DNA of 22,782 nucleotides from a virus (taxonomy: Duplodnaviria > Heunggongvirae > Uroviricota > Caudoviricetes): IMG/VR virus record IMGVR_UViG_2778261160_000006, positions 1 to 22,782 of that record; one strand, given 5' to 3'. Both the position numbers and the translations under genes were made by a program. Positions 88 through 22,782 of this stretch are shown piece after piece; position 1 is the first letter of the stretch; each line of letters begins with the position of its first letter. Under the pieces are notes generated by a model. That model did not search any database and was not told where the DNA came from. It saw nothing but the letters and a program-made list of their open reading frames with translations.

Positions 88-120
88 GAAGCCCGCGATA
101 TTTTAAGCGGGCTTTTATTT
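88..120. terminator. GC-rich hairpin (AAGCCCGC / GCGGGCTT) followed by a T-rich tract, just outside the tfa stop
   Basis: Inverted repeat read directly at 88-113 with TTTATTTT following on the + strand; which gene it terminates is unclear because the window starts here. Confidence 0.35.
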
Positions 121-701
121 TAAACTTCTGGTATTACAGGCCACTCAATATCAGGTGCAGTTGATGTATCAACACGGTTCAGCAACACCCGATACTTCTT
201 CCAGGCTTCCAGCAACGAGTTTTCTTCCTCCGTTGCGATCTCCAGATCTACAGCATCCTGAAGTGGCGCAATATGCTCACTGGCTACCTGCATCAGGCTG
301 TTTTTTGTTTCTTCCGCCTCCCGGATCCGGAACAGTTTTTCTGCTTCTGCATCTTTCACCCAGGCTGTGCCGTTCCACTTCTGAAACTCCCCTTCCGGCG
401 ATAACCAAGTAACATTTTCCGGTAACGGACCGAGTTCAGAAATAAATAACGCGTCCCCTGACGCTACGTCATAAACCGTTTTACCCCGATGATCTTCAAC
501 GAGATGCCACGATGCCTCATCACTGTTGAAAACAGCCACGAAGCCTGCCGGAATATCTGGCGGTGCAATATCGGTACTGTTTGCTGGCAGACCTGTATGA
601 GGCGGAATATATGCATCACCTTCACCAATAAATTCATTAGTTCCGGCCAGCAGATTATAAATTTTTATGGTCCGTGGTTGTTCACTCATTCTGAATGCCA
701 T
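120..701 (-). CDS. tfa: Tail fibre assembly protein, lambda Tfa-like, 193 aa
   Basis: The translation [39 protein letters not shown]... is near-identical over its whole length to lambda Tfa as I remember it. Its ATG overlaps the stop of the upstream ORF (TAATG), as at the lambda stf-tfa junction. Confidence 0.9.
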
Positions 702-7203: not shown

Positions 7204-7602
7204 TTAATTAGAGTTATTAACAACGATATCCATCTCTAACCGGATATCTAATGCCATTAACATCCCTTCAATTATGCCCTCAGCCTTTTGTAACCTTTTC
7301 CCGATATAACCATCAGAGCAGCAATGCTTACCTGCCAGTGACATGAATGTCATACCGACTACATAATAATCTACTAATAAATCGTGCAAATCGCTGTTGT
7401 TCTTTTTCAGACGGGCCATGCACCCGCAAATGATCATCGCGTCATCGTCACAACATTGCGGGCGAGATTTTACTTTTGAAGGAATTAATCCCTTAAAACC
7501 GGCGGCAATGGACGACCAGGTCACATCTTCATGATTATTAGCCGCCCACGCTCCCCAACGCTCAAGAACCATCTGAATATCACGCATCAACTTACTCCAC
7601 AA
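7204..7602 (-). CDS. Q: Late-gene antiterminator Q (phage 82 / DLP12 QuuD type)
   Basis: ...[62 protein letters not shown]... matches QuuD with a Cys-rich zinc-binding region. The true start may be the second Met (7587), giving 127 aa. Confidence 0.85.
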
Positions 7603-10523: not shown

Positions 10524-12050
10524 TCAAAAATAAACCTCACCATCAACCATATATTTGAGAGCACTTATCGCCTGCTGGGCGGATATTACTTTCATTAAAG
10601 GATAGTGTTTAAAAACAATGCCATTCATAAAATAGATATCACAGGTTTTATTATCCGTATTAATTATGATTTTTTCGAATGTTTTATAGGCAAGTGTACG
10701 GCATAACTCTCGTCCATTTTTACTGGTTAAGTCAATAGCATAAAAATCACTGAATGAATTTACACCTTTACTCTTCAAAGTTTTCAATGATACCGAAGCC
10801 CTTCTTAATTCCTTATCTAATAGTCTTATTTTCTCTGCTATAGCGGTAACTTCAGGCGCGACAGACAATGCAACGATTAAATTATTAATTTTCATCTGAA
10901 GCTCAATAATTTTTAACTCTAAAGTTTCATTAGCATCTTTCTTGTTTTCAACTGGTTGAATTTTGCTACAATTAAAAAGCAATTCATTAATGATATTATA
11001 ATCAACCAAATCTCTTTTTATTGATGGCCTGTCACATCGATGTAATCTTCTCATCGGACAAACATAATAGCCATGCAAACTTCCAGATACCGCATGAACA
11101 ATCATGGTATTACCACAAGCCTCACACTTCATAACTGTTCGAAGTAGATTTATTAGCATAGGATTCTTGCTACTATTGCTAATACCAAAAGGTGCCAACC
11201 GAATTTCCTGTACAGCGTAAAACAAATCATCTGATATGACTCTGGGATAATAGCCAGCGATTTCACTTATCCCTTTCCCTCTTGCACGATATGAAGGTAC
11301 GCATATACCTATCAGAGCTTTATTCGCTAATAATTTTTCAATTACAGAAGGTCCCCATGCACTTTCTTTTCCTGAGAAATTCTTTACAGCATGATCATTT
11401 AAATACTTGGCTATTGCATTCAATGAGCGCCTTTCCATCCTGAGTTTAAAAATTAGCTCAATAGTTTTCACCCTGTCGGGGTCTGGAACAAAAGCCGTTC
11501 TTTTGTCATCTAAGGAGAGCCATCTCGGACAAGACGCCGTCATAATCGTACCTGATTCCAGTGCATCCTGCCGTTTTTTCTTCCATGATAATTTAACCCG
11601 ACTTGACTTTATCTCGCTTTCTTCATTTGCCCTTTGTGCTATAAGTATGGCTTTTATTAATGAATATGGCTCATTCAAAGAGTCAATATTATAGACTGTA
11701 TTGTCGCAAAGAGTTATAACATCAATACCGTGATTCAAAATCAATTTCAGACGTTCAATCGCTTCACCGACTTTTTCTCTTGAAAGTCTGTCCAGACTTT
11801 CAACTAACAATGTAGTTCCTGGCAATATATAACCATGCTCTATAGCATCTAAAAATTCCGAAAAAGCTCCTGATTGTGCATGCTTTCCTTTGAATGCACT
11901 TAATCCTAAATCTTCATATGTTATGGTATCAAGATAATAATCACTATTTACCTTTAACCATTCAGCAATAAGTCTTCTCTGTCGGTTTAATGAGTCGCCA
12001 GACATCTGACCTGGTGATGAAAATCGCATATATGCTATGGCTTTTTTCAT
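10524..12050 (-). CDS. ybcK: Large serine recombinase (resolvase/invertase-type catalytic N-domain, recombinase domain and Cys-rich zinc-ribbon region), 508 aa
   Basis: N-terminal catalytic motif AIAYMRFSSPGQ with the nucleophilic Ser, a Cys cluster CEACGNT...YYVCP...HRC, and a C-terminal coiled coil. The gene is strongly AT-rich, and the length and sequence match DLP12 YbcK. Confidence 0.88.
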   Translation of the reverse strand: MKKAIAYMRFSSPGQMSGDSLNRQRRLIAEWLKVNSDYYLDTITYEDLGLSAFKGKHAQSGAFSEFLDAIEHGYILPGTTLLVESLDRLSREKVGEAIERLKLILNHGIDVITLCDNTVYNIDSLNEPYSLIKAILIAQRANEESEIKSSRVKLSWKKKRQDALESGTIMTASCPRWLSLDDKRTAFVPDPDRVKTIELIFKLRMERRSLNAIAKYLNDHAVKNFSGKESAWGPSVIEKLLANKALIGICVPSYRARGKGISEIAGYYPRVISDDLFYAVQEIRLAPFGISNSSKNPMLINLLRTVMKCEACGNTMIVHAVSGSLHGYYVCPMRRLHRCDRPSIKRDLVDYNIINELLFNCSKIQPVENKKDANETLELKIIELQMKINNLIVALSVAPEVTAIAEKIRLLDKELRRASVSLKTLKSKGVNSFSDFYAIDLTSKNGRELCRTLAYKTFEKIIINTDNKTCDIYFMNGIVFKHYPLMKVISAQQAISALKYMVDGEVYF

Positions 12051-12235
12051 GGTGACACCTGCTAACGTATGCTTTTATAAACCTTAGTGGTGGGATATAA
12101 TTTTTGTTTAATTTTTATTTAAAAAGACAATTAAGGTCACATTATCTTGAATATACAACAATAATCGTATTGCAATTTTCTTACGCCATAATCTTGAAAG
12201 CACAAAAGAACACATAAAAAAATAAAGACATTAAC

Positions 12236-12275
12236 AAAAAGCATAAAACGAGGCTCATATAAATATAAGAGCCTC
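12236..12275 (-). terminator. Rho-independent terminator downstream of emrE (GAGGCTC stem, AT-rich loop, U-tract)
   Basis: 7-bp perfect inverted repeat at 12250-12256 / 12269-12275 followed on the - strand by GTTTTATGCTTTTTG. Confidence 0.5.
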
Positions 12276-12306
12276 CATATTTTAGTCGTTTAGAAACAAA
12301 TTATTT

Positions 12307-12639
12307 TTAATGTGGTGTGCTTCGTGACAATAGATTAATAACCAACACACCGGCACAAATCAACATCATGCCTATAATGGCTGGCAGGTCCAGCCGTTGG
12401 CCGAAAAGTCCCCATGACAGTAAGCTAATCAGGACAATACCGACTCCTGACCAGATAGCATAAGCAATCCCTGTAGGAATATAAGCCAGCGTCTGAGCTA
12501 ATAACCAGAATGATGCACAATAACAAATAATTGTACCAACAGATGGCCATAACCGTGTAAAACCTTCTGAAAACTTCATTAAGGTTGTACCAATGACCTC
12601 TGCAAGTATTGCACCACCAAGATAAATATAAGGGTTCAT
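12307..12639 (-). CDS. emrE: Small multidrug resistance (SMR) efflux transporter EmrE, 110 aa
   Basis: MNPYIYLGGAILAEVIGTTLMKFSEGFTRLWPSVGTIICYCASFWLLAQTLAYIPTGIAYAIWSGVGIVLISLLSWG... has four TM helices and the conserved Glu14. The ORF-track N-terminal extension is probably not translated. Confidence 0.92.
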   Translation of the reverse strand: MNPYIYLGGAILAEVIGTTLMKFSEGFTRLWPSVGTIICYCASFWLLAQTLAYIPTGIAYAIWSGVGIVLISLLSWGLFGQRLDLPAIIGMMLICAGVLVINLLSRSTPH

Positions 12640-12798
12640 AGCATATTCTTTCCTGTTCAAACTGGAGAGAATTGTACTACAGTTTGAACTCAACTCACCT
12701 GTTTCATCATTGTGTACCCATTGATGTTCTTTTATATACCCTCAATACCCGTTTCATCGCGGCACTCTGGCGACACTCCTTAAAAATCAGATTCGTGC

Positions 12799-13008
12799 TC
12801 ACCTTTCCTTCCCGTTCTTCTCTGGTAGCGAACCGGTAATACACCGTTCGCCAGACCTTACCATCAACGACCAGGATTCCTGCCCGGCCATTTTAGCCGC
12901 AGCCTGATTTATGCTGGTTACGGTTGCGCCTGTTACCGCGGCAACGTCCTGCGCACAGAAGTTCTTATGAGTCCCCAGGTAATGAATAATTGCCTCTTTG
13001 CCCGTCAT
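12799..13008 (-). pseudogene. ren: ren fragment: lambda Ren N-terminal ~40 aa followed by unrelated sequence
   Basis: MTGKEAIIHYLGTHKNFCAQDVAAVTGATVTSINQAAAKMA matches the lambda Ren N-terminus, then homology ends at about 12890. The start overlaps the P stop (ATGA) as in lambda. Confidence 0.7.
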
Positions 13009-13706
13009 ACACTTGCTCCTTTCAGCCCAAACTTAGCTTTGATTTCTGCGATCTTCGCCAAAGCCTGTGCACGATTTAGAGGTCTACCGCCCATGACAGG
13101 AAGTTGTTTTACTGGTTCAGGTATAGCCTCACCACGGTTAATTCGCGCGATCATACAGGACAGTTCATCGGCAGCCTTGCGCCGTAATTCCGCGTCAGTC
13201 AGCGCATTGGCTCGCATGTTCTGGTACAGGTTGGTAACCAGCCAGTAGTGCGCGTTTGATTTCCACGGATAAGACTCTGCATCCGGATACAGCCCGCGCT
13301 TCCGGCAATACTCGTAAACCATATCAACCAGCTCGCTGGCGTTTGGCAGCCCGGCGGTAACGGATGCTTCTTCCCGGCACCAGGCGACAAACTGCCCGGG
13401 TGATGGCAGGAATGGTCGATTCTGCCGACGGGCTACGCGCATTCCTGCGTTAACCTGTTCCATTGTGGTGATCCCGTTTTCCCGGAAAGCCAGAACCCAC
13501 TGGCGGCGGATTTCGTTCAGTTCATTCTGGTCACGGTTAGCCAGGCTCGCCGGGAAAGTTGCCAGTAACTGCCTGAACACACCGTTGATGATCTGCGCTA
13601 CCTGCTGTACCTGTGGCTTTTCGTCGTACTGTTCCGGCATGTTGTTGGCGATCCGACGCATCTGCTCACAGTCAAAGTTAACCATTTGTGCGGCGATGTT
13701 TTTCAT
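13005..13706 (-). CDS. P: Replication protein P (DnaB helicase loader), 233 aa
   Basis: MKNIAAQMVNFDCEQMRRIANNMPEQYDEKPQVQQVAQIINGVF... is near-identical to lambda P over its full length. Confidence 0.93.
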   Translation of the reverse strand: MKNIAAQMVNFDCEQMRRIANNMPEQYDEKPQVQQVAQIINGVFRQLLATFPASLANRDQNELNEIRRQWVLAFRENGITTMEQVNAGMRVARRQNRPFLPSPGQFVAWCREEASVTAGLPNASELVDMVYEYCRKRGLYPDAESYPWKSNAHYWLVTNLYQNMRANALTDAELRRKAADELSCMIARINRGEAIPEPVKQLPVMGGRPLNRAQALAKIAEIKAKFGLKGASV

Positions 13707-14632
13707 AAATCCACCCCATAAATCCAGTCAGTGTTTGTCAGGTCCAGTTTTGATTTTCCGGCTGTCACTCCAGCCTGTTGCTTGTTACGGTTGATTTCGA
13801 GTTGGGTCCACTTGTCACGGAGTTTGGCCGGACTTAGCACGTTACCGGACCAGAAGTTGTCCTGGCATGCCCAGCGGAACAGCACGCACATGTCGCGGTG
13901 GTTACGTCCGTCACGTTCACGCATCAGGCGGATATCGTTAGCCCACCCTGCAAAATTCGGTTTTCTGGCTGATGGCGCGATGGTCTTCACCATGTCAAAC
14001 ATCCACTCTGCGGCGGTCAGGTCTTCTGCTGTCCCCCACTTGCTGCCGCTCTGAATCGCAGCATCCGGTTTCACCACAGGAAGGTCGTTTTCTGGCTGGT
14101 CAGAGTATTCGCCAGAATTCTCGGACGAATAAGGTTTTATATTGTCTTTTGTTAGTTTGTCTTTTGTGTTTACCTGATTCGGGTAAGTGCCTTTACCTGA
14201 TTTGGGTAAACTTTTCTTACCTGATTCAGGTAAATTTACCTCTTTCAGGTAAACTTTATTTTTCTTACCTGATTCGGGTAATGTTGACCATTCACTGACC
14301 ACATTATTAATGCCGATATTCCGCCCGCTCTGAATAAAAATCCCACGCTTTACCAGAACACTTTTTGCAGCAGAACACTTGTGCGGCAATATCCCGGTCA
14401 ACTCGGAAAGTTGCTCGTTGCTCACCCAATCCAGTTTTTTATTAAAGCCATATGTTTTGCGCATGACAGCCAGGAAGACCAGAAGCTGGTGCTGTGTTAA
14501 TCCGGCCAGCATCACAGCTTCCAGCAACTCATTTGCAATGCGCGTATAACCATCATCGAGATCTGCCACGCGCGGCTCCTTTTGTGCCGCATCCGGCACT
14601 GGAAAATTGAATATCTCAGCAGTGTTTGCCAT
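13703..14632 (-). CDS. O: Replication initiator O, 309 aa from MANTAEIFNF; lambda-type C-terminal domain with a divergent N-terminal iteron-binding domain
   Basis: The C-terminal ~180 aa (YPNQVNTKDKLTKDNIKPYSSENSGEYSDQPENDL...NTDWIYGVDL) are near-identical to lambda O, while the N-terminal domain is only partly similar. The ORF-track upstream extension is probably not translated. Confidence 0.88.
   Translation of the reverse strand: MANTAEIFNFPVPDAAQKEPRVADLDDGYTRIANELLEAVMLAGLTQHQLLVFLAVMRKTYGFNKKLDWVSNEQLSELTGILPHKCSAAKSVLVKRGIFIQSGRNIGINNVVSEWSTLPESGKKNKVYLKEVNLPESGKKSLPKSGKGTYPNQVNTKDKLTKDNIKPYSSENSGEYSDQPENDLPVVKPDAAIQSGSKWGTAEDLTAAEWMFDMVKTIAPSARKPNFAGWANDIRLMRERDGRNHRDMCVLFRWACQDNFWSGNVLSPAKLRDKWTQLEINRNKQQAGVTAGKSKLDLTNTDWIYGVDL
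14121..14281. repeat. ori: Replication origin inside O: five 17-bp iterons (TTACCTGATTCGGGTAA-like, at about 14170, 14193, 14217, 14236 and 14265) plus an adjacent AT-rich region (14121-14169)
   Basis: Direct repeats with internal dyad symmetry (TTACC...GGTAA) read directly from the sequence, followed in the O reading direction by an AT-rich stretch, the same layout as ori-lambda. Confidence 0.8.
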
Positions 14633-14718
14633 AATTCCTCCCGCAATGAGTGTGTTACGATTTGCACCTGAAAGTCGGTTCTGTTCCCGCAGACCGACTT
14701 TCGCCATTTTTGAACCTG

Positions 14719-15264
14719 TCATATTGCCCCCAGCATGGTGGTGACCATCGCCATCAATGGACCAGCCAGATCCGGGTCCACTCTAAACATCGACACAATG
14801 CCTTCACTCATCTCCTTCAGTTTCTGGTGGCGTGGTGCGTTGAGAATGACAGCCTGTTTTGCCTCACTGAGTTCCTTTTCCATTTCAGCCAACCTAGCCA
14901 TAAAGCTATCCTGCTCAACCAGGTAACCGCGATATTCCAGCGGTAGTACCGCCAGAATTGCCGGGGTCAGTTCACGCACGTTATTTCGGTATTTTTCAGA
15001 ATCGAATTTGTTATCGAGGAAGCGGAACAGCTTCTGGCGTGCACGGCTGACATCATCAGGGAAATCGATGGTGCCGCCGCCCTGCTCCCGATACTCATTC
15101 ACAATGAGTGCGGCAACAACATCCTGATTATCTGCAGCCGACCAGGCGCGGACGGCATCACGGATTTTTTCGTGGCCTGGAGCTTGTTTTGTTTGAGAAC
15201 GATTTATCACCGCAGTCGGGCTAAATCCGCTAGTCTGTTGGTATGTAAGTGGTTGCATAGTCAT
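14719..15264 (-). CDS. YdaT-like protein (CII functional analogue position), 181 aa
   Basis: It sits between the cro-like gene and O. The motifs EYREQGGGTIDFP and LTPAILAVLPLEYR resemble Rac prophage YdaT as I recall it; assignment is tentative. Confidence 0.55.
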   Translation of the reverse strand: MTMQPLTYQQTSGFSPTAVINRSQTKQAPGHEKIRDAVRAWSAADNQDVVAALIVNEYREQGGGTIDFPDDVSRARQKLFRFLDNKFDSEKYRNNVRELTPAILAVLPLEYRGYLVEQDSFMARLAEMEKELSEAKQAVILNAPRHQKLKEMSEGIVSMFRVDPDLAGPLMAMVTTMLGAI

Positions 15265-15288
15265 TGCCTTATCAGTTAACGCCGCAGT

Positions 15289-15516
15289 TTAGGCGGCAGA
15301 ATTACTCGCGTTAAACAATGGTGCGAGGTCGGGACGAATATCTGCTGGTTTAATCTTTCCACCAGTGGCTGAGACAATTTTCATTACATAGCGGGCATCA
15401 ATTCCGCCACCGTGTAGCCAACGCCAAACAGTGGGTTGGGCTACACCGCATAGATCTGCCAGTCGTTTTTGACTACCTGTAATACTGATTGCGAGTTGAA
15501 TGGTTTGATTTGTCAT
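15289..15516 (-). CDS. cro: Cro-like HTH regulator (Cro/YdaS type), 75 aa from the ATG
   Basis: Small HTH protein (LADLCGVAQPTVWRWLHGG) transcribed divergently from the repressor. The ORF track starts at an upstream TTG; an ATG with an AGGAA Shine-Dalgarno sequence is 6 nt downstream. Confidence 0.7.
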   Translation of the reverse strand: MTNQTIQLAISITGSQKRLADLCGVAQPTVWRWLHGGGIDARYVMKIVSATGGKIKPADIRPDLAPLFNASNSAA

Positions 15517-15626
15517 TATCAATTCCTATTGGTATTGCAACGAATAAATAATAGCAATGCGTATTAATCATAACAATAGCAAAACGTGTTTTGACCATCA
15601 ATACGCAAGCGTATAAATTAAAACTT
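15517..15626. promoter_or_regulatory. OR-like divergent control region: repeated AATAGCAA / TTGCTATT operator-like motifs, a putative pR on the - strand (-35 TTGTTA, 17 nt, -10 TATTAT) and a putative pRM on the + strand (-35 TTGACC, 16 nt, -10 ATAAAT) ending 8 nt before the cI ATG
   Basis: Read directly from the sequence. Similar ATAGC-containing motifs recur at the OL-like site at 17400-17450, and both regulators share the recognition-helix motif GVAQPT(V/I)WR. Confidence 0.55.
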
Positions 15627-16319
15627 ATGAAAAAAGAAACTCTTGCTGATCGCTTAAACCTAGCGATGGAACAATCTGGAATGTCTCAAGGCGCTCTTGC
15701 AAAGGCGTCTGGCGTAGCTCAACCCACAATCTGGAGACTGACAAGCGGCAACGCGCGCGGCTCAACAAAAATTGTTGAAATAGCTAATGCATTGGGTGTT
15801 CGAACAGAATGGCTCTCATCAGGCATAGGCCCGATGAGAAATGACGGTCAACAATTAGGGAAGCCTACTGCCAACCATCCCAAATACTTCAAGATTGACG
15901 TTCTTGATATAGAAGTGAGTGCCGGGCCGGGAGTCATCAACCGTGAGTTTGTAGAAGTTCTACGCTCGGTTGAGTACTCGTTTGACGATGCTCGTCACAT
16001 GTTCGATGGTAGGAAGGCAGAAAATATCCGCATCATTAACGTGCGTGGTGACAGCATGTCAGGAACGATCGAACCAGGTGATCTGCTGTTCGTTGATATC
16101 ACGGTTAAATCTTTCGACGGTGATGGCATCTATGCGTTTCTGTACGACGACACCGCCCATGTAAAGCGCCTGCAAATGATGAAGGATAAGCTGCTGGTTA
16201 TCTCTGATAACAAGAGCTACTCACCGTGGGACCCGATCGAGAAAGACGAGATGAACCGGGTGTTCATCTTCGGTAAGGTTATTGGGAGCATGCCCCAGAC
16301 GTACAGGAAACATGGATAA
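15627..16319 (+). CDS. cI: CI-like prophage repressor: N-terminal XRE-type HTH plus C-terminal LexA/S24 autopeptidase domain, 230 aa from MKKETL
   Basis: HTH MSQGALAKASGVAQPTIWRL, an Ala-Gly candidate cleavage site (EVSAGPG), the Ser nucleophile in VRGDSMSGTIEPGD and the Lys in HVKRL. The ORF-track TTG start at 15591 coincides with the putative -35 element. Confidence 0.85.
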   Translation: MKKETLADRLNLAMEQSGMSQGALAKASGVAQPTIWRLTSGNARGSTKIVEIANALGVRTEWLSSGIGPMRNDGQQLGKPTANHPKYFKIDVLDIEVSAGPGVINREFVEVLRSVEYSFDDARHMFDGRKAENIRIINVRGDSMSGTIEPGDLLFVDITVKSFDGDGIYAFLYDDTAHVKRLQMMKDKLLVISDNKSYSPWDPIEKDEMNRVFIFGKVIGSMPQTYRKHG

Positions 16320-16385
16320 TCAGTACTGTGCTGATGAGTCGTTTAGGGGATAGTAAATTTAATTAGAATTAGACGAGAGCGATTT

Positions 16386-17249
16386 ATGGATTGTGACGCT
16401 TTACAGGATATAAAAATCTCTCTTAGGTATGACGGAAAAGATGCTTTAAATCATGAAATAGATTTGAACTGCCTAGGAGAATCCCTAAAGGGTTTTTCTA
16501 AAGTTCTCTCAACAGCAGCTTCTTTCTCTGTTACACAAAAATATAGTAAATACATTAATTATCAGGAAGTTAAGGTTTACGCACGCGAAGCAAAAGCTAA
16601 CTGCTTTACTCTTGAAGCAGTTCTTAACTTCGCCACTCAGAACCAGTTGTTCTCGGGGATCGCCGCAACTATACTTGGCGCAATACTACAATATATTTTT
16701 GCGAGAAATTCTAACAAGAAAGATGAAATGAAAGCTTTGCAGCAGTCACTTGAAAAGGCCATAGAGGCACTAGGAAACAAGGATGCTGGAACCATTGATA
16801 AGTTGATCTCTTTGATTGACCGAATGGCTGTAGAGCTTCGCCCCTCTGTAAGGCAGGCAGTATCACCTATTGGTAATACTTGCGATCAGATAAGTGTTGC
16901 AACAAATGTTGACGGCTGCCTTCTAAAAGTTAACGAGAGAGATAAAGCTGAAATTGATAGGCTTGATGATGATGAAGTTCTCGGTCTTCGTGAGTATCGT
17001 GCTTTTCTTACAGAATTTGATGCACAAAATATGACAGCTAAAATAATTTTAGATGGTGATGACTCAAAAAAGAGAATCACTGCTGAAATTAGCGATCCAG
17101 CTGCAGGAAAGAAGAATAACCCGTATATTAGAGCTCTTAGTGCATATATATCAACCAAAGGTGATCCATCTGCAGTATTCACTATAACCGCAAAGGCTAC
17201 TGTTAAAAAAGGCCAGATAAACAGGTTATTTATTGTAGATGCGAAATGA
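16386..17249 (+). CDS. Hypothetical 287-aa protein in the rexAB position (directly downstream of cI, same strand); AT-rich, with one central hydrophobic segment and a predicted coiled-coil region; candidate lysogen-expressed exclusion or defence gene
   Basis: A clean ORF with markedly lower GC than cI, sitting 66 nt after the cI stop and followed by a strong intrinsic terminator. It has a hydrophobic stretch [19 protein letters not shown] and no similarity to RexA/RexB that I can see. Confidence 0.6.
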
Positions 17250-17253
17250 TTTC

Positions 17254-17280
17254 CCCGGCCGTCGTGCCGGGTTTTCTTTT
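17254..17280 (+). terminator. Rho-independent terminator of the cI / 287-aa transcript (CCCGGC-loop-GCCGGG followed by TTTTCTTTT)
   Basis: Perfect 6-bp GC stem with a 6-nt loop and a T-tract, immediately after the 287-aa ORF stop. Confidence 0.65.
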
Positions 17281-17399
17281 GCCTCCCCTCATCACACACC
17301 GTTCAAAAAACCACCACAACCTCCCTTCAGTTATCGCTATGCGATGCAAGTCACAAAATTAATTCTTTTTGCTATCAAACAGTTAATATCAAAACACAT

Positions 17400-17455
17400 C
17401 AATCAATAGCTATAAGTATTGATAGCACCAATAGCAATAGCTATTATTACCATGT
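17400..17455 (+). promoter_or_regulatory. pL-like early-left promoter (-35 TTGATA at 17419-17424, 17-nt spacer, -10 TATTAT at 17442-17447) overlapping OL-like operator repeats (CAATAGCTAT, AATAGCAATAGCTATT)
   Basis: Near-consensus sigma-70 hexamers with ideal spacing, overlapped by the same ATAGC motif family found at OR, at the position expected for pL/OL relative to cI. Confidence 0.6.
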
Positions 17456-17645
17456 CGCAACAACACAACGATACGGCAACCACCTGATTCACCGTTGCGA
17501 TGACCGCTTAGATCCGCAGCTTGAATTTCGGCAGGCTCCGGGGAGTGCGAGGGGTGAAACGGACGCGTGAACGTCGGTGTGACCAGCTGAAATCAACTCA
17601 ACTCAACACCTCATACCTCAGTCGCTTCAACGAGGCGGCTTAGTT

Positions 17646-17936
17646 ATGACAACCGGCGGCCATCCACCGCCTGAATACGCGCAGAAGTCTCTATATGTTC
17701 AGCAGCCCAGCTTACGGGCAGGAGTTTTTATGGTTCATCAACATTACGGAACGCAGACCGTTAATCGAGGTGCGGTCATGCCAGGAATGCTGGTCAAACA
17801 CAAAGATGGTACCTGGACTGCATCAGCTAATTTACGCGGACGGCTATATCTGCATCGCGGCATCGAGCGCACTTATACCCGTGATTTGCTCGTAGAAGTT
17901 TTTCTCGACGGACGCGGTAACGGCCTGAATCACTAA
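17646..17936 (+). CDS. Hypothetical protein, up to 96 aa, first ORF of the pL operon in the kil/cIII position
   Basis: ORF with phage-backbone-like GC whose 3' end runs into the 5' region of the lambda long-Gam reading frame in a different frame. I recognise no similarity, and the start codon is uncertain. Confidence 0.35.
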   Translation: MTTGGHPPPEYAQKSLYVQQPSLRAGVFMVHQHYGTQTVNRGAVMPGMLVKHKDGTWTASANLRGRLYLHRGIERTYTRDLLVEVFLDGRGNGLNH

Positions 17937-18012
17937 CCCCCCTTTCCTGTTTTCCTAATCAGCCTGGCATTTCGCAGGCGATATTTTCACAGCCATTTTC
18001 AGGAGTTCAGCC

Positions 18013-18309
18013 ATGAACGCTTATTACATTCAGGATCGTCTTGAGGCTCAGAGCTGGGCACGTCACTACCAGCAGATCGCCCGTGAAGAGAAAGAGGCAG
18101 AACTGGCAGACGACATGGAAAAAGGTCTTCCACAGCACCTGTTTGAATCACTCTGTATCGATCATTTGCAACGCTGCGGGGCCAGCAAAAAAGCCATTAC
18201 CCGTGCGTTTGATGACGATGTTGAGTTTCAGGAGCGCATGGCAGAACACATCCGGTACATGGTTGAAACCATTGCTCACCACCAGTTTGATATTGATTCA
18301 GAGGTATAA
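18013..18309 (+). CDS. gam: Gam, short form GamS (RecBCD inhibitor), 98 aa
   Basis: [54 protein letters not shown]... is near-identical to lambda GamS. The upstream long-form extension is not intact. Confidence 0.9.
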
Positions 18310-18314
18310 AACGG

Positions 18315-19100
18315 ATGAGTACAGCACTCGCAACGCTGGCAGGGAAGCTGGCTGAACGTGTCGGCATGGATTCTGTCGACCCACAGGAACTGATCACCAC
18401 TCTTCGCCAGACGGCATTTAAAGGTGATGCCAGCGATGCGCAGTTCATCGCATTGTTGATCGTCGCCAACCAGTACGGCCTTAATCCGTGGACGAAAGAA
18501 ATTTACGCCTTCCCTGATAAGCAGAACGGCATTGTTCCGGTGGTGGGCGTTGATGGCTGGTCCCGCATCATCAATGAAAACCAGCAGTTTGATGGCATGG
18601 ACTTTGAGCAGGACAATGAATCCTGTACATGCCGGATTTACCGCAAGGACCGTAATCATCCGATCTGCGTTACCGAATGGATGGATGAATGCCGCCGCGA
18701 ACCATTCAAAACCCGCGAAGGCAGAGAAATCACGGGGCCGTGGCAGTCGCATCCCAAACGGATGTTACGGCATAAAGCCATGATTCAGTGTGCCCGTCTG
18801 GCCTTCGGATTTGCTGGTATCTATGACAAGGATGAAGCCGAGCGCATTGTCGAAAATACTGCATACACTGCAGAACGTCAGCCAGAACGCGACATCACTC
18901 CGGTTAACGATGAAACCATGCAGGAGATTAACACTCTGCTGATCGCCCTGGATAAAACATGGGATGACGACTTATTGCCGCTCTGTTCCCAGATATTTCG
19001 CCGCGACATTCGCGCATCGTCAGAACTGACACAGGCCGAAGCAGTGAAAGCTCTTGGATTCCTGAAACAGAAAGCCACTGAGCAGAAGGTGGCAGCATGA
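18315..19100 (+). CDS. bet: Bet (Red-beta) single-strand annealing recombinase, 261 aa
   Basis: [66 protein letters not shown]... is near-identical to lambda Bet. Confidence 0.95.
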
Positions 19101-19777
19101 CACCGGACATTATCCTGCAGCGTACCGGGATCGACGTGAGAGCTGTCGAACAGGGGGATGATGCATGGCACAAATTACGGCTCGGCGTCATCACCGCTTC
19201 AGAAGTTCACAACGTGATAGCAAAGCCCCGATCAGGAAAGAAGTGGCCTGACATGAAAATGTCCTACTTCCACACCCTGCTGGCTGAGGTTTGCACCGGT
19301 GTGGCTCCGGAAGTTAACGCTAAAGCGCTGGCCTGGGGAAAACAGTACGAGAACGACGCCAGAACCCTGTTTGAGTTCACTTCCGGCGTAAATGTTATTG
19401 AATCCCCGATCATCTATCGCGACGAAAGTATGCGCACCGCCTGCTCTCCCGATGGTTTATGCAGTGACGGCAATGGCCTTGAGCTGAAATGCCCGTTTAC
19501 CTCCCGGGATTTCATGAAGTTCCGGCTCGGTGGTTTCGAGGCCATAAAGTCGGCTTACATGGCCCAGGTGCAGTACAGCATGTGGGTGACGCGAAAAGAT
19601 GCCTGGTACTTTGCCAACTATGACCCGCGTATGAAGCGTGAAGGCCTGCATTATGTCGTGGTTGAGCGGGATGAAAAGTACATGGCGAGTTTTGACGAGA
19701 TGGTGCCGGAGTTCATCGAAAAAATGGACGAGGCACTGGCTGAAATTGGTTTTGTATTTGGGGAGCAATGGCGATGA
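19097..19777 (+). CDS. exo: Exo (Red-alpha) 5'-3' exonuclease, 226 aa
   Basis: [62 protein letters not shown]... is near-identical to lambda Exo. Its start overlaps the bet stop. Confidence 0.95.
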
Positions 19778-19935
19778 AGCATCCTCACGATAATATCCGG
19801 GTAGGCACGATCACTTTCGTCTACTCCGTTACAAAGCGAGGCTGGATATTTCCCGGCCTTTCTGTTATCCGAAATCCCCTGAAAGCACAGCGGCTGGCTG
19901 AGGAGATAAATAATAAACGGGGGCTGTATGACTGA
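19774..19935 (+). CDS. Hypothetical small protein, 53 aa, translationally coupled between exo and the methyltransferase
   Basis: Hand-translated [56 protein letters not shown]. Its ATG overlaps the exo stop (ATGA) and its stop overlaps the methyltransferase start. Confidence 0.4.
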
Positions 19936-20485
19936 TTTCACCGGAAGCAATACTCCTGCCGAACATCGCGACAGCTGGCGCACACCACCAGAGATTTTTG
20001 CTGCGCTTAATGCAGAGTTCGTTTTTCAACTTGATGCTGCCGCCAGCGAAAAAAACCGACTATGTCGGCTTTTTATCTCACAGGAGCAGAACACATTAAC
20101 CACTTCATGGCCTGAAGCAATGGGATATGCCTCTGGTTATGTCTGGTTGAATCCACCATACAGCAATATTTCCCCTTTTGTGAAAAAGGCAGCCACTGAA
20201 AACAAATTCAGTAGTGTGGGATGTGTAATGTTATTGCCTGCTGACACATCTGTCGGATGGTTTCATGAAGCGATACAAACCGCCAGTGAGGTCAGATTCA
20301 TCACGACAGGACGACTGGCATTTATTAACCCACTCACTGAGAAAACCGTCAGTGGAAATAATAAAGGCTCGATGCTCATTATCTGGCACCCATACCCCCG
20401 TACACACTGCCGCTTTACGACCGTTGATCGTGGAGAGTTGATGGCGTTCGGCTCAAGGATTCTTGCCCGTCGGGAGGCTGCATGA
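19928..20485 (+). CDS. Phage-type DNA N6-adenine methyltransferase (Dam family), 185 aa
   Basis: Catalytic NPPY motif in context (GYVWLNPPYSNISPFVKKA) and the FQLDAAAS N-terminal motif typical of phage orphan Dam methyltransferases. It has no adjacent restriction enzyme gene. Confidence 0.75.
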   Translation: MTDFTGSNTPAEHRDSWRTPPEIFAALNAEFVFQLDAAASEKNRLCRLFISQEQNTLTTSWPEAMGYASGYVWLNPPYSNISPFVKKAATENKFSSVGCVMLLPADTSVGWFHEAIQTASEVRFITTGRLAFINPLTEKTVSGNNKGSMLIIWHPYPRTHCRFTTVDRGELMAFGSRILARREAA

Positions 20486-20561
20486 CAACCACGGAATGCA
20501 TTTTTCTGGCAGCGGGCTTCATATTCTGTGTGCTTATGCTTGCCGACATGGGTCTTGTTCA

Positions 20562-20777
20562 ATGACACCTCAGCAGGAAAACGCCCTTCGCAGCATTGCC
20601 CGTCAGGCTAATTCTGAAATCAAAAAAGCCAGACAGCAGTTTCCGGATAAAAACGTCGATGACATTTGCCGTAGCGTACTGAAGAAGCACCGCGAAACGG
20701 TAACGCTGATGGGATTCACACCGACTCATTTAAGCCTGGCGATCGGCATGTTAAACGGCGTCTTTAAGGAACGGTGA
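20562..20777 (+). CDS. Hypothetical protein, about 71 aa from MTPQQENALRS
   Basis: ORF in the early-left operon whose likely ATG overlaps the stop of an upstream 27-codon hydrophobic micro-ORF (20482-20565). Function unknown. Confidence 0.4.
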   Translation: MTPQQENALRSIARQANSEIKKARQQFPDKNVDDICRSVLKKHRETVTLMGFTPTHLSLAIGMLNGVFKER

Positions 20778-20875
20778 ACATGAAAAGCAAAATCATCAGG
20801 GAGCTACAGGCTCCTTTTTTATTGTTCGCATTCATCCTCAAGCGTATTAACCAACAATTCAGGGATTAATGGAAG

Positions 20876-21094
20876 ATGGCAGACATCATTGATTCAGCAT
20901 CAGAAATCGAAGAATTACAGCGCAATACAGCAATAAAAATGCGTCGTCTGAACTACCAGACTGTATCCGCAACTCATTGTTGTGAGTGTGGCGATCCGAT
21001 AGATGAGCGAAGACGCCTGGCTGTTCAGGGTTGTCGGACTTGTGCAAGTTGCCAGGAGGAGATCGAACTTAAGAACAAACAATGGGGACTGTGA
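20876..21094 (+). CDS. TraR/DksA-family C4-type zinc-finger protein, 72 aa
   Basis: C-terminal Cys motifs (CCECGDPI...CRTCASCQ) in a ~70-aa protein, as in the TraR-like proteins of lambdoid phages. Confidence 0.75.
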   Translation: MADIIDSASEIEELQRNTAIKMRRLNYQTVSATHCCECGDPIDERRRLAVQGCRTCASCQEEIELKNKQWGL

Positions 21095-21141
21095 TGGCCT
21101 CAAAGCAGCAAATTTCAACATCGTCCAACTGAGGTGTAAAA

Positions 21142-21420
21142 ATGTTCAGAATCATTTTTCCTAACACCTGGTACGTCGACCACCACGGCACTCCCTGCAA
21201 AATCCTGCGTTCTACCCACAACAAAGTTCACTACATCCGAAAAGGCAGAACATGTATCGCCAGCATGTTCCGCTTTAATCATGACTTTGAACCTGTGAAT
21301 AAAGCTGATGCAGATCGGATAGCAGAAGAGATCGAAACGGCAGAACACATTAAGAAGTTACGTGACATGCGTTCAAAAAGCAGAGGTAACCATGGAATCA
21401 TACAGCCTCACACTCGATGA
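21142..21420 (+). CDS. Hypothetical protein, 92 aa, upstream of xis
   Basis: ORF MFRIIFPNTWYVDHHGTPCKILRSTHNKVHYIRKGRTCIASMFRFNHDFEP...; I recognise no family. Confidence 0.4.
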   Translation: MFRIIFPNTWYVDHHGTPCKILRSTHNKVHYIRKGRTCIASMFRFNHDFEPVNKADADRIAEEIETAEHIKKLRDMRSKSRGNHGIIQPHTR

Positions 21421-21763
21421 GGCCTGTCAGTTTCTTAAGATATCCAGACCAACCGCCACCAACTGGATACGAACAGGCCGCCTACAGGCAACACGTAAAG
21501 ATCCAACCAAGCCAAAATCTCCTTACCTCACAACACGGCAAGCCTGCATTGCGGCGCTTCAGTCTCCGCTGCATACTGTCCAGGTGAGCGCGGGTGATGG
21601 CATAACAGAGGAAAGAAAATGTCACTCTTCCGCAGAAATGAAATATGGTATGCCTCGTATTCGCTCCCGGGCGGGAAACGAATTAAGGAATCTCTTGGCA
21701 CAAAGGACAAGCGGCAAGCTCAGGAGTTGCACGACAAGCGAAAAGCAGAACTCTGGCGAGTAG
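21392..21763 (+). CDS. xis: Excisionase-like HTH protein (AlpA/Xis type), up to 123 aa from MESYSL, overlapping the int start
   Basis: HTH motif [26 protein letters not shown] immediately upstream of int. The reading frame continues 145 nt into int, so the true C-terminus is uncertain. Confidence 0.6.
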
Positions 21764-22782
21764 AAAAGCTAGGGGATTTACCTGATGTCACTTTTGAAGA
21801 GGCCTGCCTAAGATGGCTTGAGGAAAAAGCTGATAAAAAATCTCTCGATTCAGATAAAAGCCGGATTGAGTTCTGGCTTGAACATTTTGAGGGTATAAGG
21901 CTTAAAGATATCTCGGAGGCAAAGATTTACTCTGCTGTAAGCAGAATGCATAACAGAAAGACGAAAGAAATATGGAAACAGAAAGTTCAGGCCGCCATCA
22001 GGAAAGGTAAAGAACTGCCTGTTTATGAACCAAAGCCAGTATCAACTCAGACAAAGGCAAAGCATCTTGCCATGATAAAGGCCATTCTCCGTGCTGCAGA
22101 ACGCGACTGGAAGTGGCTGGAAAAAGCGCCTGTCATCAAGATACCAGCGGTCAGAAACAAGCGAGTCAGATGGCTGGAAAAGGAGGAAGCAAAACGCCTT
22201 ATTGATGAGTGCCCCGAACCACTGAAATCTGTCGTCAAGTTTGCGCTGGCAACTGGTCTGAGAAAGTCGAACATCATAAATCTGGAATGGCAACAAATCG
22301 ACATGCAGCGACGAGTTGCCTGGGTGAATCCAGAAGAGAGCAAATCAAACCGCGCCATTGGTGTGGCGCTGAACGATACCGCCTGTAAAGTGTTGCGTGA
22401 TCAAATAGGCAAGCATCACAAATGGGTGTTTGTACATACCAAGGCGGCTAAGCGAGCAGATGGAACATCAACGCCTGCGGTCAGGAAGATGCGCATCGAC
22501 AGCAAGACATCATGGCTATCAGCTTGTCGTCGTGCAGGAATTGAAGATTTCCGTTTCCATGACCTCAGACACACCTGGGCAAGCTGGCTGATTCAGTCAG
22601 GCGTCCCATTATCAGTGCTTCAGGAAATGGGCGGATGGGAGTCCATAGAAATGGTTCGTAGGTATGCTCACCTTGCGCCTAATCATTTGACAGAGCATGC
22701 GAGGAAAATAGACGACATTTTTGGTGATAATGTCCCAAATATGTCCCACTCTGGAATTATGGAGGATATAAAGAAGGCGTAA
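21619..22782 (+). CDS. int: Tyrosine integrase (DLP12 IntD-like), 387 aa
   Basis: [46 protein letters not shown]... with the C-terminal catalytic region [39 protein letters not shown] (R...HxxR...Y). The window ends at its stop, so att is not in view. Confidence 0.93.

Follow-up and report, generated by a model that had tools for sequence, protein, structure and literature searches.

In lambda-like phages, N-dependent antitermination is the textbook route to the delayed-early genes. The lambda-type N protein is about 100 aa long, with an N-terminal arginine-rich motif and with NusA- and RNA polymerase (RNAP)-binding regions, and the terminators in the early operons of lambda are passed by the N-modified polymerase. 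The put RNA of HK022, which acts in cis on RNAP via the beta-prime zinc-binding domain, is to our knowledge the one well-studied exception to N-dependent antitermination. The present report concerns the left early region of a prophage in a stretch of 22,782 nucleotides (IMG/VR record IMGVR_UViG_2778261160_000006, positions 1 to 22,782; the whole stretch is called the window below), and in particular the leader of about 275 nt between its left early promoter, pL, and the gene kil, in which neither N nor a nut or put site was found. N-less lambdoid phages are already known, namely HK022 and LLS, and a put-like mechanism has been guessed for the latter (PMC12315714).

The prophage is a Bievrevirus-type temperate phage with Rac/YdaS-YdaT-like immunity genes and lambda-like Red genes, and the stretch around the leader is the left early promoter region of a lambda-like prophage that is very common in E. 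coli. What is leftward in lambda corresponds to the + strand of the window. The region resembles lambda in its promoter/operator layout, in its gam-bet-exo and exo-xis modules and in having kil directly before gam, but differs from it in the lack of N, nutL, ral, sieB, ea10, cIII and the GamL extension. As with HK022, this is an N-less lambdoid phage with a conserved non-coding element right after pL; unlike HK022, it shows no putL/putR similarity, no second copy of the element after pR and no nun at the N position. The family thus keeps the Red genes, the exo-xis genes and a lambda-identical terminator, yet has neither N nor put. If its N-independence is genuine, it would be a natural counterpart of the nin-type N-independence of lambda and would show that N is dispensable; if the leader antiterminates, one of the commonest types of prophage in E. 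coli would carry a new antitermination element. The kil identity of the first gene and the short Gam are, next to this, ordinary points.

The left early promoter and its leader

An earlier note on this DNA, made from the sequence alone, had proposed a pL-like promoter, and OL and pL were indeed identified by the promoter hexamers and by operators shared with OR alone (Table 1). The combination TTGATA-17-TATTAT is the best sigma-70 match of the region, and both operators overlap it. The operator pattern AATAGCNATNNNTATT has four matches in the window against 0.12 expected, and the sole operator copy outside OL is OR, at 15550-15565. Amongst the relatives, three immunity types each have their own -35/-10 hexamers and operators at the pL position, and beyond T17455 the sequence is nearly invariant across relatives of differing immunity type. 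Because this invariance begins at T17455, the pL transcript would be expected to start near 17454.

The leader can be divided into three parts. The first, 17455-17487, is C-rich and linked to immunity type. The second, 17488-17609, is a conserved core that is unique to the N-less leader family and holds the hairpin at 17518-37 and a G-rich stretch. The third, from about 17605 to 17729, is also found upstream of kil in HK225, and its part 17643-17672 also in phi80. In phi80, pL is followed by nutL, N, tL1A, then AGTTATGACAACCGGCGGCCATCCACCG and, further on, kil, and in HK225 a phi80-type nutL leader is followed by three small genes, the intrinsic terminator CCCGCCACGGCGGGTTTTTT and then CATACCTCAGTCGCTTCACCGAGGCGGCTTAGTTATGAC running to kil. 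The order of pL and then kil before the recombination genes is common to the window and both phages; upstream of kil, the window shares TTATGACAACCGGCGGCCATCCACCG with phi80 and HK225 and CATACCTCAGTCGCTTCA.CGAGGCGGCTTAG with HK225. Both phages have an annotated nutL (boxA and core hairpin), whereas the window family has none, and the terminator that stands directly 5' of the common CAUACCUCAGUCGC... segment in phi80 and HK225 is lost from it. In place of the nutL, genes and terminator of these phages, the window family carries a unique 155-nt segment, so that it lacks N together with the promoter-proximal terminator.

Of 5426 complete E. coli genomes, 2225 have the leader, almost all of them in a single copy. 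The form found in the window is rare, with at least 99% identity in just 13 of the 2225, and its leader-kil junction (17452-17735) is 100% identical to that of E. coli PapRG-06-5 (NZ_CP048605). Additionally, blastn against the phage collection gave a full-coverage leader in 16 phage records, amongst them Perceval, 4A7, 4C10, 1W, 3W, D2, Turner, IdasGreatGrand and several PhiR phages. Where these records have a taxonomy line it gives Bievrevirus, and several name E. coli C or MG1655 as host. Since members of the leader family have been propagated on E. coli C or MG1655 or isolated as phages, the N-less layout is viable and does not belong to decayed prophages alone. In the literature on put, N-less lambdoid phages, Bievrevirus and prophage sRNAs, nothing was found on this pL leader.

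The window has one copy of the core, as does each of the 137 related loci. The leader has 13-23 variable sites in 100 nt, against 21 in the kil coding sequence. In one IMG/VR contig (2734482774_000015, L023), the leader continues into non-kil sequence from the equivalent of about 17713, and in several E. coli proteins of a large protein database (P0001-P0003) the leader frame is fused to Gam, Xis-like or other coding sequences. Judging from the L023 junction and from several leader-frame fusion proteins that start in the leader, deletions with an end in the leader are frequent.

Searches for N, nut, cIII and put

The absence of N, nut and put from the region is solid. No N-like family of PHROG or Pfam was matched amongst the early ORFs scanned, which agrees with the statement of the earlier note that there is no recognisable N gene; neither nutL nor similarity to N was found. 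The nut sites and antiterminator RNAs that the note had thought worth looking for did not appear in boxA, Rfam or put scans either. Allowing up to one mismatch, no boxA (CGCTCTTTA-like) was found in 12000-22782, and no relevant Rfam family was obtained at the gathering score on the whole window or at E up to 10 on 17230-18050. No cIII was found in the left early region.

For put, 23 collected putL and putR variants served as the reference; their RNA has two stems in about 70 nt and the invariant blocks GAACGG...GTCGGG...GGATGA...CAATG. These invariant motifs are absent from the window, Smith-Waterman alignment of putL/putR to both of its strands gave scores at the level of shuffled sequences, and blastn was also negative. 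A second leader-like, nutR-like or putR-like copy in the pR operon was sought by local alignment, nhmmer and a hairpin-motif search, and none was found.

The first gene is kil and is followed by a short gam

The ORF 17646-17936 had been called unrecognised, a view that has to be given up because it matches the Kil family phrog_294 (E 1e-38), NCBIfam NF008465 and the Kil of phi80. The 68-aa version of the protein matches phrog_294 over its full length (E 1.3e-37), is 41% identical to phi80 Kil (E 5e-16) and aligns by residues 1-68 to positions 1-70 of 73 of NF008465, an FtsZ inhibitor profile (63 bits, E 1.8e-17). As 63 bits lie below the curated subfamily cut-off of 92, the protein is a member of the wider family and not of the Rac KilR subfamily. 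It has the family and length class of Rac KilR (NCBIfam PRK11354), with end-to-end profile alignment and RacR/YdaS/YdaT-type immunity genes alongside; it differs from Rac KilR in its score below the subfamily cut-off and in that this kil is the first gene of a pL operon. The identification as a kil of the KilR/phi80 type is solid, and from the annotation of its homologues the product is predicted to be an FtsZ inhibitor. Of the claim that an unknown ORF replaces kil and cIII, the absence of cIII stands, while the ORF itself is kil.

The true start of kil is most likely ATG 17730 and not 17646, because four lines of evidence agree. AGGAG lies 5 nt upstream of ATG 17730; PGAP calls exactly the CDS 17730-17936 (WP_000233576); in Turner and in two further related loci (L090, L134), -1 frameshifts or a stop interrupt the extension 17646-17729; and polymorphisms at codon positions 1/2/3 number 5/6/31 from ATG 17730 onward, compared with 5/4/8 for the extension.

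The window Kil is unrelated in sequence to the 47-aa Kil of lambda. Both genes end at the same TAA, within TCACTAA, and the homology to lambda begins there; alignment placed its resumption at TCACTAACCCCC, in accordance with the position of about 17925 given previously. The difference from lambda kil amounts to an exchange of alleles at a gene boundary, as is usual in the mosaicism of lambdoid phages. Downstream, an intact GamS starting at 18013 had been noted and is borne out by a full-length PF06064 match. The frame upstream of its ATG is closed by TAA 17956-58 and has no start codon. Lambda GamL, by comparison, has 138 aa, that is, a 40-codon N-terminal extension with its own ATG. This extension was absent from every relative examined that carries the window kil allele and was seen only in lambda and in one contig with a lambda-type kil; since the GamL ATG sits inside lambda-type kil, the extension is confined to such loci. 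It is therefore true that only GamS can be made here, but the long form is not broken by a lesion, its absence being normal for this kil allele. The kil-gam spacer holds a weak hairpin at 17962-17979 (-10.2 kcal/mol).

Hairpins, C-rich tracts and an Arg-rich mini-ORF in the leader

Three local hairpins, HpA, H1 and H2, were retained in the leader (Table 1). The fold of 17512-17545, which includes HpA, has an energy of -12.2 kcal/mol; a common C/U polymorphism at 17520 still pairs with G17535, and a polymorphism at 17530 falls in the loop. HpA is the only small hairpin before the mini-ORF, and its 8-nt loop AAUUUCGG is unlike boxB loops, which are short in lambda and P22. No HpA-like hairpin was found in the pR operon of the window or of the 137 related loci. 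H1 is considerably more stable than expected (-16.3 kcal/mol, z = -3.8, with none of 200 shuffles equally stable), and one-sided changes in it retain the pairs 17622-17638, 17612-17648 and 17623-17637. It was weakly terminator-like in the terminator scan, and in HK225 the H1 hairpin is present after the intrinsic terminator.

A fold of the whole leader was considered and rejected. Common variants at 17543 and 17554 disrupt pairs of the single-sequence minimum free energy (MFE) structures, and a structure obtained with RNAalifold keeps its pairing in every common variant but was fitted to the same data. Because every change is a one-sided transition, only HpA, H1 and H2 were kept. A match to the Rfam ALIL pseudoknot, an IS3-family frameshift element, on the - strand at 17575-17681 (24.9 bits against 50; E 2.6e-4 in a small search) is probably due to chance.

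C-rich sequence occurs at two places. The interval 17455-17494 has 15 C and 6 G, and 17590-17620 reaches the length, at least about 30 nt, that was looked for in a C-rich, G-poor tract of an untranslated leader. In the latter, a TCAAC repeat is present in three copies in the window against the usual two, the extra unit being 17593-17597. It was seen in five of 69 distinct sequences and is absent from Perceval, 4A7 and others. This unit shifts the Arg-rich frame discussed next to a stop, TAG 17641-43, two bases before ATG 17646.

The reading frames of 17455-17645 had been described as a few codons long and not Arg-rich, which does not hold: the interval contains an Arg-rich frame of 30-43 codons, which from TTG (17521-17643) has 40 codons and encodes RLRGVRGVKRTRERRCDQLK. 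Its downstream part, from GTG 17554, is preceded at 8 nt by the Shine-Dalgarno-like GGGGAG and reads (V/M)KRTRERRCDQLKST..., in which (V/M)KRTRERRCDQLK resembles TRRRERRAEKQ of lambda N, matching at R-x-RERR. In 20 of 129 loci the start is ATG and not GTG, a change that is compatible with translation but no proof of it. The 3' end differs between loci, with a stop after ...HFIP, 20 codons from the GTG, in about 51 of the 129, a reading into kil in about 56, the window form with the 5-nt expansion in six and other frameshifts in the remainder. Polymorphisms in the mini-ORF show no third-position bias. By tblastn (E up to 10), no similarity to any phage protein beyond the N-less family was found, and BLASTP against lambda N gave nothing.

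Since the 3' end varies and no protein-level selection is seen, the mini-ORF was judged not to be an N gene, and we think that it is not an N. The short N-like protein that the earlier note thought would speak against a missing N is approached by the mini-ORF in being Arg-rich, but the selection and similarity tests give N no support. The 139-aa 'Kil' CDS of Perceval was likewise considered as a genuine N-Kil fusion and discarded, the fusion frame being interrupted in more than half of the relatives.

Distal terminators on the way to xis/int and Q

The kil-gam-bet-exo part near pL contains only weak terminator-like hairpins. Further along the operon, the intrinsic terminator at 20798-20822 folds with -11.1 kcal/mol (z = -2.6), and its GGGAGCTACAGGCTCCTTTTTT is identical to the leftward strand of lambda 30669-30690, near which we take the Rho-independent terminator tL3 of lambda to map. 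Altogether 179 phage records, 434 and Stx phages amongst them, share the segment with this terminator. For transcription from pR, the terminator at 12242-12275 (-) stands between P/ren and Q. Q itself, which the earlier note had correctly reported as present, matches phrog_79 (7204-7602 (-), E 6e-54). A repressor-controlled promoter nearer to Q was sought and rejected, as the operator pattern has no match outside OL and OR. With no closer promoter for Q, either the distal terminators leak enough or an unrecognised device overrides them.

The terminator before Q belongs to an emrE/qacE-type SMR transporter gene in the nin region (12242-12693 (-)), which is followed by a gene for a 508-aa serine recombinase (10524-12050 (-)) called YbcK in relatives. 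The complete emrE-ybcK cassette was found in 12 records of the phage collection, which stand for 11 distinct phages and are all within the 16 carriers of the leader, and presumably resembles that of the DLP12 prophage of E. coli K-12.

Proposed explanation and alternatives

We give a probability of roughly 45% to N-independent early expression with a regulatory leader, in which Rho-sensitive tracts, the mini-ORF and H1/H2 would guard a toxic kil. On release of the repressor, pL would fire near 17454 and give a leader of 275 nt that is untranslated or translated in the mini-ORF only, and the first real gene would be the KilR-type kil, with gam (98 aa), bet and exo behind it. Because the nutL-N-tL1A module is replaced by about 155 nt without a terminator, kil and the Red genes would be transcribed straight from pL without N. 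The phage would be N-independent by design, with no promoter-proximal terminators of the tL1 or tR1 type and with distal ones that are only partly efficient. The leader would serve as a regulatory 5' untranslated region gating the toxic kil and the operon behind it: the C-rich, G-free tracts may let Rho halt stray transcripts, and translation of the mini-ORF across 17590-17620, together with H1 and H2, may shield productive ones. The Rho-dependent attenuators of tnaC-tnaA and mgtL/corL likewise have a short ORF over a C-rich, G-poor tract in a long leader, a likeness that is one of analogy only.

Several observations weigh against this explanation. The fold of the whole leader is not more stable than that of shuffled sequences (z = -0.6). 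The end point of the mini-ORF is variable amongst the 129 loci, and the Arg-rich core, compared with an anchor outside the frame, varies only by R>C, Q>H and K>E, all of them non-synonymous. As all homologues are near-identical E. coli sequences, conservation may mirror recent spread and not constraint. Finally, on the way from the early promoters there are two intrinsic terminators, one before xis/int (20798-20822) and one before Q (12242-12275), so a phage without an antiterminator must live with reduced expression of Int/Xis and Q.

The alternative that survives best, and which we nevertheless regard as rather unlikely, is that the unique 155 nt are a functionless scar of the loss of an N-nutL-tL1 module and owe their conservation to recent prophage spread. 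The homologues of the leader are indeed all E. coli sequences of at least 90% identity. A blastn search in distant mode against phages returned only the N-less family and a 40-nt match in HK225, and a search of 5.8 billion proteins gave only E. coli deletion or fusion variants of the leader frame and no diverged relative. An 18-mer of the Arg-rich stretch, compared as an exact 18-mer alone with the GTDB species representatives, had only chance matches in high-GC genomes. A scar would also fit the 3' half, which tolerates frameshifts, stops and the 5-nt repeat expansion. The core, on the other hand, is intact beside three operator/promoter sets and before different downstream genes (as in L023), which indicates that it survived repeated recombination around it. 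Additionally, the polymorphism density of the core is about one third of that of the kil-gam spacer, although the figure for the spacer is inflated by mosaicism.

It is also conceivable, but improbable, that an RNA antiterminator acting in cis, like putL but unrelated to it in sequence, is formed by the core 17488-17609, perhaps together with H1 and H2, and lets pL transcripts reach xis/int. The core occupies the putL/nutL position right after pL, has been retained over at least three immunity types that differ in operators and in the first 35 nt, and is as conserved as the adjoining coding sequence. A lambda-identical intrinsic terminator lies downstream in the same operon, and no protein antiterminator was found in the early ORFs scanned. 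These points have to be set against the pR operon, which has a terminator before Q but no second copy of the core or similar hairpin, against the missing put motifs and the chance-level putL/putR similarity, and against a leader fold that is not unusually stable, shows no two-sided covariation and loses MFE pairs to the variants at 17543 and 17554. In the broader form, that the core is an undescribed processive antitermination element replacing N/nutL, made of RNA alone or of RNA with a 20-40-aa Arg-rich peptide, the proposal is likewise doubtful. If it were correct, about 40% of complete E. coli genomes would carry such an antiterminator and transcription from pL would pass the terminator before xis/int, while the terminator before Q would still need a separate solution.

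That the mini-ORF is a functional minimal N-like peptide, binding a leader hairpin such as HpA for antitermination or autoregulation, is very improbable: its R-x-RERR match to lambda N, its position as the first frame after pL with a well-spaced GGGGAG and a GTG/ATG start polymorphism, and the hairpin 17 nt upstream are outweighed by a frame that has 20-43 codons in about half of the relatives and is fused to kil or frameshifted in the others, by a variable C-terminus with no counterpart of the NusA- and RNAP-binding regions of N, by the variants and similarity searches described above, by the absence of both boxA and a nutR-like partner, and by the ease with which a CG-rich stretch yields an Arg-rich frame by chance.

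Coordinates and neighbouring features

Table 1. Position and basis of the features of the left early region and of the related elements named in the text.
Feature	Position	Strand	Basis or details
Intrinsic terminator after emrE/qacE moron	12242-12275	-	GAGGCUCUUAUAUUUAUAUGAGCCUC (-12.0 kcal/mol) then GUUUUAUGCUUUUUG
cI-type repressor gene	15591-16319		Peptidase_S24 and HTH domains
DUF7946/DUF7947 gene, 287 aa	16386-17249	+	phrog_5147; rexAB position between cI and OL
Intrinsic terminator closing the cI-moron (prophage-expressed) operon	17254-17281	+	CCCGGCCGTCGTGCCGGG then TTTTCTTTTG
Terminator-to-OL spacer	17283-17400	not assigned	alignment of relatives, columns ~40-120 nearly invariant
OL operators, two 16-bp sites AATAGCnATnnnTATT	17405-17420, 17430-17445	+	direct repeat D1 and pattern scan
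pL promoter	17419-17447	+	-35 TTGATA 17419-24, 17-bp spacer, -10 TATTAT 17442-47; 10/12 sigma-70 match
Leader, ~275 nt	17454-17729	+	pL to kil, without N, nutL or put
Hairpin HpA	17518-17537	+	6-bp stem, loop AAUUUC(G/A)G
Arg-rich mini-ORF	17554-17643	+	GTG start, (M)KRTRERRCDQLKSTQLNTSYLSRFNEAA then stop
G-free C-rich tract, 31 nt	17590-17620	+	from the composition profile and the G-free runs listed; resembles a Rho-loading site
Hairpin H1	17611-17649	+	followed by UUAGUUAU; basal stem buries ATG 17646
Hairpin H2	17655-17671	+	GGCGG-CCAUCCA-CCGCC, -8.9 kcal/mol; also in phi80 and HK225
kil, KilR/phi80-type predicted FtsZ inhibitor, 68 aa	17730-17936	+	Shine-Dalgarno AGGAG 17720-24
kil-gam spacer, non-coding	17937-18012	+	homologous to the lambda part encoding GamL residues ~16-40
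gam, 98 aa (GamS length)	18013-18309	+	PF06064, E 2.2e-63, residues 1-98 on profile 1-98 of 98
Intrinsic terminator in early-left operon	20798-20822	+	GGGAGCTACAGGCTCC then TTTTTTAT; upstream of TraR-like gene, xis and int

Upstream of OL, the DUF7946/DUF7947 protein has a weak match to the PADLOC candidate system PDC-S42 (E 1.5e-4). The genes of relatives in the same rexAB slot are quite different and include a HipA-like kinase pair, an ASCH-domain protein and a lipoprotein, so that this appears to be a variable position for morons or defence genes. The terminator at 17254-17281 is kept in relatives despite their different upstream morons. The spacer that follows it is nearly unchanged amongst phages differing in operators and repressors, for example in CTTCAGTTATCGCTATGCGAT.CAAGTCACAAAAT, and has no apparent function.

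On the other side of the repressor gene, the gene in the cII position (14719-15264 (-)) encodes a protein of 181 aa that is 'CII-like' in PHROGs (phrog_163) and is labelled 'toxin YdaT domain-containing' by PGAP in an identical genome. With a YdaT-type protein in this position, the immunity region is of the Rac (RacR/YdaS/YdaT) type and not of the lambda type. At the cro/cII-like junction, a hairpin GCCGC-CUAAACU-GCGGC without a U-tract lies at 15281-15297 (-); its stem and loop are like those of the phi80 tL1A hairpin GCCGC-CUAACCA-GCGGC, where the U-tract is present. At the far end of the window, Rfam IS009 has a full-length match at 160-358 (-), with 227.9 bits against a gathering score of 117, which sits within the ORF 120-701 (-) and adjoins a 560-aa ORF presumed to be the large terminase.

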